The notes beneath the pieces were generated by a model. That model made no database searches. It was not told where the DNA came from and saw only the letters and a program-made list of their open reading frames with translations. Positions 30,470 through 32,187 of a stretch of DNA of 46,932 nt are shown here, piece after piece. Every line of letters begins with the position of its first letter. Positions within the stretch are counted from its first letter, which is position 1. Location: the UHGV virus genome UHGV-0283311, one strand, 5' to 3'. The position numbers and the translations under genes were made by a program. Source of the DNA: a virus.

Positions 30470-30548
30470 TGGTACTCCATATCGGATTCGAACCGATACA
30501 TAACACAGATTTTAAGTCTGGCCTCTCTGCCAATTGGAGTAATGGAGC
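30470..30548 (-). tRNA. tRNA with anticodon TAA (Leu-type anticodon), short variable loop, atypical
   Basis: T-arm atcgg/ccgat, loop CTTAAAA, D-loop aattggca; aligns with the gene at 31531..31608; no long variable arm. Confidence 0.4.
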
Positions 30549-30550
30549 AT

Positions 30551-30626
30551 TGGCGGGGGATGTTGGAATTGAACCAACTTCTTCGATTTCAAAGACCGAG
30601 GTTTTAACCTTGTAAACTAATCCCCT
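30551..30626 (-). tRNA. tRNA-Gln(TTG)
   Basis: anticodon stem tcggt/atcga, loop CTTTGAA, D-stem gttt/aaac; A1-C72 mismatch. Confidence 0.7.
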
Positions 30627-30634
30627 TTAAATCT

Positions 30635-31192
30635 TTACTTTCTCAGTGGATGAATAAAGAATGCCAACATAACTCTTTCCCTTGAGAATGCTCTTTCTTC
30701 TGGGACAACACTTTTTAGTTTCCATCCAATATAAATTCTCCAGTAAAATTGTTTACCAAAGATTTTAATTGATGGGATAAAAGCGAATAATCCCCAAGCA
30801 TTACTGTTCCACATTAGGAGATAACCTGTCTGATTATCTTCGGGGTCAGAACTTACGTTGATATTACCTTTCCACTTAGTAACATCTTTTACATCTCTTC
30901 CTAATACATGGTAAGAGAAGTTATAAGCTTTGTTTCTCCAGAGCCATCCAACTCTCTGCATGTAGACACCCAGCTTACCAATCCATCTAATATTAGCCCA
31001 TCTTTTAACGTGACCTTCATCACCATCAATTGGGTTGTCATAGGTCTCCATCCATCTGAACCCGAAAGGTAAGTGTCCTTTCTTCTCACTGTAGGATGGA
31101 ACTACGAAAGGTGCTAAGATGACTGCTAGGGTTGCTGCAAATGGTTCTAACAAAGCTAAGAAAATCCATGAAACATATTTTAAGTATCTCAT
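30635..31192 (-). CDS. hypothetical membrane protein embedded in tRNA array
   Basis: 185 aa, hydrophobic N-terminus IFLALLEPFAATLAVILAPFVV, Trp-rich. Confidence 0.5.
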   Translation of the reverse strand: MRYLKYVSWIFLALLEPFAATLAVILAPFVVPSYSEKKGHLPFGFRWMETYDNPIDGDEGHVKRWANIRWIGKLGVYMQRVGWLWRNKAYNFSYHVLGRDVKDVTKWKGNINVSSDPEDNQTGYLLMWNSNAWGLFAFIPSIKIFGKQFYWRIYIGWKLKSVVPEERAFSRERVMLAFFIHPLRK

Positions 31193-31431
31193 TGTCTAAC
31201 CCTCGTAAGGAGGTAAGCATTATTATTTGTTTCTGAGCTTTCTGGTAACATTGTCTCAAAATTGATGCTTTTAAGTTGTCTTCCACCAAAGCAATGACCA
31301 ATAAATCTTTCTACTTTTATTGGGTCGCATTCCCATCCGACTTTCAAGAAAATGTGGGTATCTATAGTGGGAACCCTTACAAACTCAATACTATTGGGAT
31401 TTTCATGTTCAACGACGATTAATGTTTGCAT
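31189..31431 (-). CDS. hypothetical protein embedded in tRNA array
   Basis: 80-aa ORF, stop overlaps downstream start. Confidence 0.45.
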   Translation of the reverse strand: MQTLIVVEHENPNSIEFVRVPTIDTHIFLKVGWECDPIKVERFIGHCFGGRQLKSINFETMLPESSETNNNAYLLTRVRQ

Positions 31432-31449
31432 AAATTCCTCTTGCTTATC

Positions 31450-31525
31450 TGGCGCAGGATAAGGGATTCGAACCCCTATTAACAGCTTCGTAGACTGTTG
31501 CTCTATCCATTTGAACTAATCCTGC
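31450..31525 (-). tRNA. tRNA-Arg(ACG)
   Basis: perfect 7-bp acceptor, loop CTACGAA, CCA encoded. Confidence 0.8.
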
Positions 31526-31530
31526 AAAAT

Positions 31531-31608
31531 TGGTGTTCCAAGACGGATTCGAACCGTCACTAGTACAAGGTTTGAGCTTGCATCCTCTGCCAATTGGGAT
31601 ACTGGAAC
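31531..31608 (-). tRNA. tRNA with anticodon CAA (Leu-type anticodon), short variable loop, atypical
   Basis: anticodon stem gcaag/cttgt, loop CTCAAAC, D-loop aattggca, discriminator A. Confidence 0.45.
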
Positions 31609-31609
31609 A

Positions 31610-31684
31610 TGGTACTCACTAAAGGACTTGAACCTTTTTCTTCATCTTGTAAGGGTGATGTTTTACCATATAAACTAAGCGAGT
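31610..31684 (-). tRNA. tRNA-Val(TAC)
   Basis: loop CTTACAA, D-stem gttt/aaac, T-arm aaagg/ccttt. Confidence 0.7.
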
Positions 31685-31779
31685 GTGAAAGAGGTCTGAA
31701 GTTGTGCCGCTAACTCAACTCCGTGGAATTTGTTACGGTCTTCAGTTGACACCAGCGGTCTTTCACTTGGCCTCTGAAT

Positions 31780-31856
31780 TGGTGCTGCTCACAGGACTCG
31801 AACCTGCATTTCCATCCTTACAAGGGATGTGTAATAGCCAATTATACGAAAGCAGC
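31780..31856 (-). tRNA. tRNA-Thr(TGT)
   Basis: anticodon stem catcc/ggatg, loop CTTGTAA. Confidence 0.7.
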
Positions 31857-31862
31857 ATTGTT

Positions 31863-31937
31863 TGGAGCATCCAGAGGGAATCGAACCCTCAACCTCAGTT
31901 TGGAAGACTGTAATTTTCCCGTTTAAACTATGGATGC
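31863..31937 (-). tRNA. tRNA-Gly(TCC)
   Basis: perfect acceptor gcatcca/tggatgc, loop CTTCCAA. Confidence 0.75.
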
Positions 31938-31943
31938 ACTAAT

Positions 31944-32019
31944 TGGTGGAGAAGCAGGGAATTGAACCCTGTACTTAAGTTTGCAAAACTTATGTTTTAA
32001 CCATGTAAACTACATCCCC
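31944..32019 (-). tRNA. tRNA-Ala(TGC)
   Basis: anticodon stem taagt/actta, loop TTTGCAA, D-stem gttt/aaac. Confidence 0.75.
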
Positions 32020-32025
32020 AATGTC

Positions 32026-32101
32026 TGGTACAGGTGGAGGGAATTGAACCCATCGTCTTACTGATTAAGAGTCAGCCGCATAACCATTTTGCTACACCTG
32101 C
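32026..32101 (-). tRNA. tRNA-Lys(CTT)
   Basis: loop CTCTTAA; weak T-stem; paralogous to Lys(TTT) at 33261..33336. Confidence 0.6.
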
Positions 32102-32108
32102 ATTAATT

Positions 32109-32187
32109 TGGTAGGAGACAAGGGATTCGAACCCTCAAGCATCTCGTTCTAAGCGAGATAGGTCTACCAAGTTGCCGTCAATCTCCC
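32109..32187 (-). tRNA. tRNA with anticodon TAG (Leu-type anticodon), short variable loop
   Basis: perfect anticodon stem tctcg/cgaga, loop CTTAGAA, Leu-like D-loop aacttggtaga, 5-nt variable loop. Confidence 0.5.

Follow-up and report, generated by a model that had tools for sequence, protein, structure and literature searches.

Three tRNA genes with leucine anticodons lie on the minus strand of the UHGV virus genome UHGV-0283311, a stretch of 46,932 nucleotides (nt) hereafter called the window, and all three have a short, unpaired variable region in place of the long arm of class II tRNAs. They are tRNA-Leu(UAA) at 30470..30548, tRNA-Leu(CAA) at 31531..31608 and tRNA-Leu(UAG) at 32109..32187, and they belong to an array of 25 tRNA genes (as called by ARAGORN) interrupted by three small open reading frames (ORFs), which occupies 29275..34429 on the same strand. 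The window is a member of Felixounavirus (Ounavirinae): its 5.7-kb tRNA region shares 96.4% identity with Escherichia phage VpaE1_ev035 and 95.7% with vB_EcoM_ASO1A, and a total of 316 phage records match it. The genes themselves are not new, as GenBank records annotate all three as tRNA-Leu, and the genome paper of phage Felix O1, published in 2010, lists Leu(TAG), Leu(CAA) and Leu(TAA) genes of 78-79 nt and leaves their shape uncommented (PMC3185647). A 2023 review, on the other hand, describes tRNA-Leu as long-armed everywhere but in animal mitochondria (PMC9976931). A preliminary description of the window, made from its letters alone, had placed the three leucine tRNAs at these positions, and both ARAGORN and Rfam agree with it on coordinates and anticodons, and add the minus strand, which it had left unstated.

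The tRNA-Leu(UAA) gene is 79 nt long according to ARAGORN. Its acceptor stem is formed by 5' GCUCCAU and 3' AUGGAGU, with G1.U72, and is followed by A73 and an encoded CCA, while positions 8-9 read UA, thus providing U8. The D arm, CUC C AAUUGGCAG A GAG, has a 3-bp stem (CUC/GAG) with a C13.A22 mismatch, and position 26 is G. The anticodon arm is CCAGA CUUAAAA UCUGU, the variable region GUUAUGU (7 nt) and the T arm AUCGG UUCGAAU CCGAU. The tRNA-Leu(CAA) gene, of 78 nt, is built in the same manner: its acceptor stem pairs 5' GUUCCAG with 3' UUGGAAC and has G1-C72, positions 8-9 are again UA, and A73 and CCA are encoded; the D arm is UCC C AAUUGGCAG A GGA with U at position 26, the anticodon arm GCAAG CUCAAAC CUUGU, the variable region ACUAGU (6 nt) and the T arm GACGG UUCGAAU CCGUC. 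Both genes carry U8, A14 and A15, and place G18G19 as tRNA-Leu does, that is, with a 3-bp D stem, a mismatch at 13.22 and a 9-nt D loop (AAUUGGNAG).

The tRNA-Leu(UAG) gene, of 79 nt, departs from this scheme. Its acceptor stem (5' GGGAGAU, 3' GUCUCCU, with G1.U72), A73, encoded CCA, anticodon arm (UCUCG CUUAGAA CGAGA), variable region (UGCUU, 5 nt) and T arm (GAGGG UUCGAAU CCCUU) can be assigned directly, and positions 8-9 read UG. The D arm, ACGG CAACUUGGUAG ACCU, is aberrant, having either a C11.C24 mismatch or a 3-nt connector at 8-9, and its D loop, of 10-11 nt, is 1-2 nt larger; position 26 is A. The register of A14 and A15 varies with the D-arm fold that is chosen, and position 37 is A, not G. 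The last nucleotide of the variable region is U in all three genes, a statement that concerns the base only and not its tertiary pairing. The D-loop strings (aattggcaga, aacttggtaga) and the discriminator A pointed out in the preliminary description can be read directly in the gene sequences.

When the genes are divided at their anticodon and T stems, their variable regions measure 7, 6 and 5 nt for UAA, CAA and UAG, respectively, so that a long variable arm (more than 10 nt with a stem) is missing from all of them, and the ARAGORN drawings likewise contain no extra stem. The 5-6 nt first reported are therefore right for CAA and UAG and one short for UAA. By contrast, the serine and tyrosine tRNAs of the same array do have long arms, as had been noted: ARAGORN gives 93 nt for Ser(GCU) (29355-29447), 90 nt for Ser(UGA) (32444-32533) and 88 nt for Tyr(GUA) (33851-33938), all on the minus strand. 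The Rfam tRNA model (RF00005) scores the UAA, CAA and UAG genes at 47.5, 43.6 and 30.5 bits, all above its gathering threshold of 29 bits. The UAG gene must be regarded as marginal, because ARAGORN misses it in a 99-nt excerpt and calls it only in a larger context. Automated folding was inspected for a long arm and for a different anticodon, either of which would have undone the original observation, and neither appeared.

The nearest stand-in for a test with isotype models was a ranking by a covariance model (R1) built from a gap-free alignment of 35 distinct, 74-nt viral class I Leu tRNAs from unrelated contigs. In this alignment standard pairs occupy 97.1% of the paired cells, compared to 59.9% in shuffles, 18 of the 20 pairs vary on both sides, and the covariation score is 0.99, as opposed to 0.24 in shuffled alignments and at most 0.19 when the partners are slid. 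Positions G1, U8, A14, A15, G18, G19, U48, G53, T54, T55, C56, A58 and A73 are invariant, and 13.22 is nearly always G.A or C.A. Within the window, R1 ranks the UAA gene first (68.9 bits) and the CAA gene second (65.4), with the UAG gene sixth (54.5) of about 27 tRNA-like matches, after Cys, Thr and Glu. Compared to the general tRNA model, R1 adds 21-24 bits to each of the three Leu genes, while most other tRNAs of the array lose or merely hold their score. All three fit the class I Leu family in having a Leu anticodon, an unpaired variable region within 4-7 nt, a Leu-type D arm, A73 and U48. As a separate observation, the tRNA-Cys gene of the array (29278-29350, minus strand) also has a Leu-like D arm (GACAGAAAUGGCUAUGUG) and, at 58.9 bits, is third in the window on this model.

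The same shape recurs far beyond the window. Class I Leu tRNAs stand beside class II Ser and Tyr tRNAs in Erwinia phage Prophecy, Yersinia phage P778, Acinetobacter phage phiAbaA1 (Saclayvirus), Aeromonas phage AhP_Mru1 (Demerecviridae) and Lactobacillus phage LpeD (Herelleviridae). In AhP_Mru1 (locus L003 796-875) a tRNA with a UCA anticodon is found next to three class I Leu tRNAs; the record describes it as a suppressor and ARAGORN as a selenocysteine tRNA. A scan of IMG/VR with the pattern AATTGGYAGA, which is not specific to Leu and is also present in Thr, Lys, Asn and other tRNAs, returned at least 120 loci. Among the matches listed, 77 of 129 Leu tRNAs are short, at 73-78 nt without CCA, and 52 are long, and the long form is kept by 64 of 64 Ser and 31 of 33 Tyr tRNAs. 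Eighty-one of the loci were found through a non-Leu tRNA and so sample Leu tRNAs without bias; they contain 15 short and 36 long Leu tRNAs (15/51, ~30%). The length of the variable region is cleanly bimodal over the 281 Leu tRNAs surveyed, with modes at 4-7 and 12-25 nt and two cases of 9 nt. A 5-nt loop is present in 70 of 75 viral class I members, so that the UAA and CAA genes, with 7 and 6 nt, lie toward the upper end of the family's range. All of the 222 class I Leu genes surveyed have A73, and 220 have U48.

Bacterial genomes also contain class I Leu genes. In GTDB species genomes, among the matches listed, they occur as the single tRNA gene of an 8-kb locus in many Actinobacteria, including Nocardia, Mycobacterium, Gordonia, Rhodococcus, Arthrobacter and Bifidobacterium. 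These single-copy genes (loci L132-L251) are mostly UAA and nearly identical across genera (GCCCCCATAGCCCAATTGGCAGAGGC...), and their D arm, CCCAAUUGGCAGAGG, is that of the phage UAA and CAA genes. Class I Leu genes are found as well in arrays of 10-26 tRNA genes in cyanobacteria (Cylindrospermum, Moorena), Micromonospora, Asanoa and Acidobacteria, among others. When cores are compared without the variable region, the nearest neighbour of a class I member is another class I member in 66 of 75 cases, in a sample of short sequences that was chosen by pattern and for which a single origin is not claimed. As judged from these sequences, arm-less tRNA-Leu is a widespread family that spans many phage lineages, mobile tRNA arrays and Actinobacteria. 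The preliminary description had called class I Leu tRNAs unusual, which is true relative to the tRNAs of the host and does not extend to phages, among which the form is common.

Among the matching phage records, the three genes are conserved to different degrees. Of 264 phage records, 216 match the UAA gene with an identity of 99% or more, against about 94-96% for the surrounding array in the best records, and for the CAA gene 248 of 292 records reach 95% or more. Pseudogene marks were not seen in either gene, both having intact stems, invariant bases and high conservation, and purifying selection is evident for both. The UAG gene is far more variable within the genus, with identity of at least 95% in only 7 of 176 records; its D arm is damaged, yet its anticodon stem is kept by compensatory changes, as in UCUCG/CGAGA, CCUCG/CGAGG and CCAUC/GUUGG. 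A blastn search of 5,426 E. coli genomes with the UAA gene (E up to 10) gave zero matches, and therefore a recent host origin and a prophage copy of this gene are not indicated. One deposited isolate, Salmonella phage FG1m (PP068123; locus L002 4999-5076), has a chimeric gene whose 5' two-thirds are Leu(CAA) and whose 3' end is Leu(UAA), joined at the common GGTTCGAATCCG, so that its acceptor and T stems no longer pair. The corresponding deletion of ~1 kb, which removes an Arg tRNA, two ORFs and a Gln tRNA, appears to result from recombination of one class I Leu gene with the other.

The closest points of comparison are the tRNA-Leu species of E. coli itself. The host genes leuZ (UAA), leuX (CAA) and leuW (UAG) carry the same three anticodons and have A73, U8, A14, A15 and U48 in common with the phage genes. 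The D arm of E. coli tRNA-Leu, GGAAUUGGUAGAC, is nearly that of the phage UAA and CAA genes, CCAAUUGGCAGAG, both sharing AAUUGG[U/C]AGA, a 3-bp stem and N13.A22. The G1.U72 of the phage UAA and UAG genes is also present in leuZ and leuU, and the phage UAA anticodon loop, CUUAAAA, is that of leuZ. The UAG species, on the other hand, has A37 where leuW has G37. The outstanding difference lies in size, as the five tRNA-Leu species of E. coli K-12 are 85-87 nt long with stem-loop arms of 13-15 nt, whereas the phage tRNAs have 5-7 unpaired nucleotides.

Type I tRNA-Leu is already known from animal mitochondria and from Streptomyces coelicolor. The S. coelicolor tRNA-Leu(CAA) has a 5-nt loop, coexists with class II tRNA-Leu and is charged by the single bacterial leucyl-tRNA synthetase (LeuRS) of that organism; it is chromosomal, has C48, and its A73 is reportedly no identity element, unlike the phage tRNAs, which have U48 and must use an enterobacterial LeuRS (Nucleic Acids Res 2019, PMC6614811). 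In animal mitochondria tRNA-Leu is also class I, and A73 and A14 serve it as identity elements (PMC9976931). These mitochondrial tRNAs are degenerate, AT-rich and served by their own mitochondrial LeuRS, whereas the phage tRNAs have a canonical elbow (G18G19, T54, psi55, C56). A further precedent is an arm-less tRNA-Leu(TAG) in a horizontally mobile mycobacterial tRNA cluster that also includes genes for HNH endonucleases; a single sentence of that paper, on a different host phylum, remarks that its structure differs from that of the host isoacceptor, and draws no link to phages in general or to recognition by LeuRS (PMC6582537). Phage T5 also has a large array as a lytic coliphage, but its tRNA-Leu(UAG) is class II, with 85 nt and a 13-nt arm. 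Given that an Aeromonas phage of the T5 family has three class I Leu tRNAs, both forms must turn over within one family. Our literature search found no description of arm-less tRNA-Leu as a common phage feature and no test of an arm-less phage tRNA-Leu with an enterobacterial LeuRS, and the term 'type I tRNALeu' was found in PMC6614811 only.

For E. coli LeuRS, the elements on record are A73, A14, A15-U48, G18/G19-U55/C56 and U54-A58 (PMC6614811), and all of these bases are present in the sequences of the phage UAA and CAA tRNAs and, subject to the fold chosen for its D arm, in that of the UAG tRNA. The bacterial LeuRS of Aquifex mainly loses affinity when the variable arm is deleted and no longer charges a tRNA from which U48 has been removed, and its identity elements lie outside both the anticodon loop and the variable arm (PMC2377443). 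Seryl-tRNA synthetase (SerRS) recognises class II tRNAs only (PMC7609411). The phage Ser and Tyr tRNAs, as described above, keep the arm. For bacterial tyrosyl-tRNA synthetase (TyrRS), too, the variable arm is an identity element. The arm would then be lost in Leu and kept in Ser and Tyr because SerRS and TyrRS need it and LeuRS does not read it.

The codon bias of the phage matches the three anticodons. Over 50 long ORFs of the window, with 39.1% GC, leucine is encoded by UUA in 31% of cases, CUU in 27%, CUG in 12.5%, CUA in 11.6%, UUG in 11% and CUC in 7%. In E. coli about 50% of Leu codons are CUG. The phage anticodons duplicate those of leuZ, leuX and leuW, which are single-copy, minor isoacceptors of the host. 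For Felix O1, the Leu(TTA) tRNA has been proposed to aid translation (PMC3185647). With regard to expression, a strong sigma-70-like promoter (33059..33087, minus strand; TTGACA-17-TATAGT, 11/12 matches) is situated upstream of the gene block with Leu(UAG) and Leu(CAA), and a promoter is annotated at the equivalent position in MZ726791.

The structure of the genes, their family membership, conservation and covariation, together with the leucine meaning of their codons, lead us to conclude, with a probability of roughly 0.8, that the three are functional leucine-accepting class I tRNAs, which the host LeuRS would charge and from which phage translation would benefit. In this model, the phage tRNAs would have lost the arm only, keeping the elements that LeuRS reads, namely A73, U8:A14, the A15:U48 Levitt pair, G18G19 and the T loop. 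Promoters of the host type inside the array would drive their transcription, host LeuRS would charge the products, and these would supply decoding of UUA, UUG and CUN, codons that a phage of 39% GC uses far above CUG. The preliminary description had left a choice between class I Leu tRNAs and tRNAs of another identity, and the cloverleaf, the LeuRS features and the R1 ranking support the former, while nothing found supports the latter.

Several observations weigh against this conclusion. E. coli LeuRS did not charge the type I tRNA-Leu(CAA) of S. coelicolor, the same study, the only biochemical one on a bacterial type I tRNA-Leu, states that the enzyme 'only charges type II', and the C-terminal domain of E. 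coli LeuRS contacts arm nucleotides 47f-47i (PMC6614811). It may be conjectured that C48, in place of U48, lies behind the failure of the Streptomyces tRNA. In addition, the D arm of the UAG gene is defective and its G18G19 displaced, its position 37 is A in place of G, its scores are the lowest of the three, and it is labelled 'pseudo/tRNA-OTHER' in one record (Si3); its product may be a weak substrate or the gene may be decaying.

These same points sustain the strongest alternative, which we nevertheless consider unlikely, namely that the phage produces these tRNAs but host LeuRS accepts them poorly or not at all, so that they would act outside decoding, for example as decoys or sponges for host tRNA nucleases or other tRNA-binding factors, or would persist as decaying relics. 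The failure of E. coli LeuRS on the Streptomyces tRNA speaks for it, and the UAG gene, with its aberrant D arm, Rfam score of 30.5 bits, pseudogene label and fast evolution, is its most plausible case. The FG1m isolate, which has no UAA gene and a damaged CAA gene, indicates that a phage can do without these genes, in the laboratory at any rate, and tRNA arrays have been proposed to be anti-defence devices (PMC12803027). Nonetheless, the UAA gene is identical in more than 200 phages, above the level of the array around it, and the full LeuRS identity set is kept at 99-100% over the 222 class I Leu genes surveyed, although a decoy would need none of it. Moreover, the stems are held by compensatory changes and the set of anticodons fits the codon bias of the phage.

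Far less probable is the view that these tRNAs, for all their leucine anticodons, receive a different amino acid, like yeast mitochondrial tRNA-Thr(UAG) or Ashbya tRNA-Ala(UAG), the phage thereby partly recoding its Leu codons. The absence of the arm had prompted this suspicion, LeuRS ignores the anticodon, and mitochondrial class I tRNAs with a Leu anticodon and another identity do exist (PMC7609411). A search for marks of another identity in the three genes, however, found no G3:U70 (3:70 is U-A, U-A and G-C) and only 7-nt anticodon loops; SerRS and TyrRS would find no long arm to act upon, and the remaining synthetases that use A73 require their own anticodons. The codons themselves were examined by aligning the terminase of the window with 90 homologues of 41-58% identity, and Leu makes up 48% of the residues opposite UUA, 45% opposite UUG, 56% opposite CUU and 49% opposite CUA, values comparable to the self-conservation of Phe(UUU) (56%), Lys(AAA) (47%) and Val(GUU) (39%). 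Recoding is therefore unlikely and largely refuted, and host tRNAs would in any case decode those codons as Leu. The chance that the short loop stems from faulty folding or annotation, and that a long arm, an intron or another anticodon lies behind it, is practically nil: single-sequence minimum free energy (MFE) folding gave weak z-scores (-1.6, -1.5 and -0.5) and did not recover the UAA cloverleaf, a result that is uninformative, and the 5' end of the UAG gene is placed one base apart by ARAGORN and Rfam, but genes of 75-76 nt without CCA are too short to hold an arm, which refutes the idea by length alone, ARAGORN, Rfam and R1 agree on the anticodons, and loop lengths are bimodal.

A bolder version of the preferred explanation, in which loss of the arm is a recurrent strategy selected in phages rather than a tolerated deletion, strikes us as doubtful. 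On this hypothesis, a tRNA recognised through A73 and the elbow only would be portable between hosts, since SerRS and TyrRS, being keyed to the arm, could not mischarge it, and an arm-less Leu tRNA might evade an activity, of the host or induced by the phage, that is directed at class II tRNAs. Were this so, class I tRNA-Leu would be a substrate of enterobacterial LeuRS, in conflict with the published claim that only type II is charged. Schlafen enzymes were considered as a class II-specific defence and rejected, given that human SLFN11 cuts type II tRNAs but the bacterial enzyme that has been studied cleaves class I tRNAs, such as those for Lys, Ala and Met.

The array includes other features, all on the minus strand. 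Adjoining the 5' end of tRNA-Leu(UAG), a near-perfect hairpin of ~28 bp (32183-32282) has an MFE of -41 kcal/mol (z = -4.25, with 0/200 shuffles equal) and may be a processing or termination signal; its Rfam match to a plant miRNA precursor is spurious. A tRNA-like element at 32776-32854, which ARAGORN does not call, scores 31.7 bits with the Rfam tRNA model and 25.2 bits with the class I Leu model, and has an intact acceptor stem, T arm and anticodon arm (loop CUUCUAA, that is, UCU), a D arm of only ~4 nt and a variable region of ~20 nt. Between this element and Ser(UGA) lies a weaker tRNA-like match (32552-32627), with 18.6 bits on R1 and 23 bits on the Rfam tRNA-Sec model (E 0.066). Three conserved ORFs of unassigned function are located inside the array (29449-30183, 30635-31192 and 31189-31431; DUF7217, DUF7338 and PHROG 14202). 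At its edge, 34595-36010 encodes a 471-aa protein with DUF2828 and DUF7788 domains that matches PHROG 850, 'RNA-binding protein', and for which a sequence search of the PDB returned no relative of solved structure.

Taken as a whole, the finding is a correct but under-appreciated structural note on annotated genes, for which the most likely explanation is ordinary, and not a new system. On the practical side, isotype-specific tRNA models may under-score or mislabel arm-less Leu genes, and compact scaffolds that accept leucine and lie beyond the reach of SerRS and TyrRS may serve for suppressor or engineered tRNAs. For the biology of these viruses, arm-less Leu tRNAs are conserved in hundreds of phages of E. 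coli, Salmonella and Shigella, and they provide a clean natural experiment in what a synthetase needs of its class II tRNA, the arm having been lost for Leu, where it is no identity element, and never for Ser. As this form is so common, LeuRS enzymes from Proteobacteria to Firmicutes are implied to accept an arm-less tRNA-Leu.

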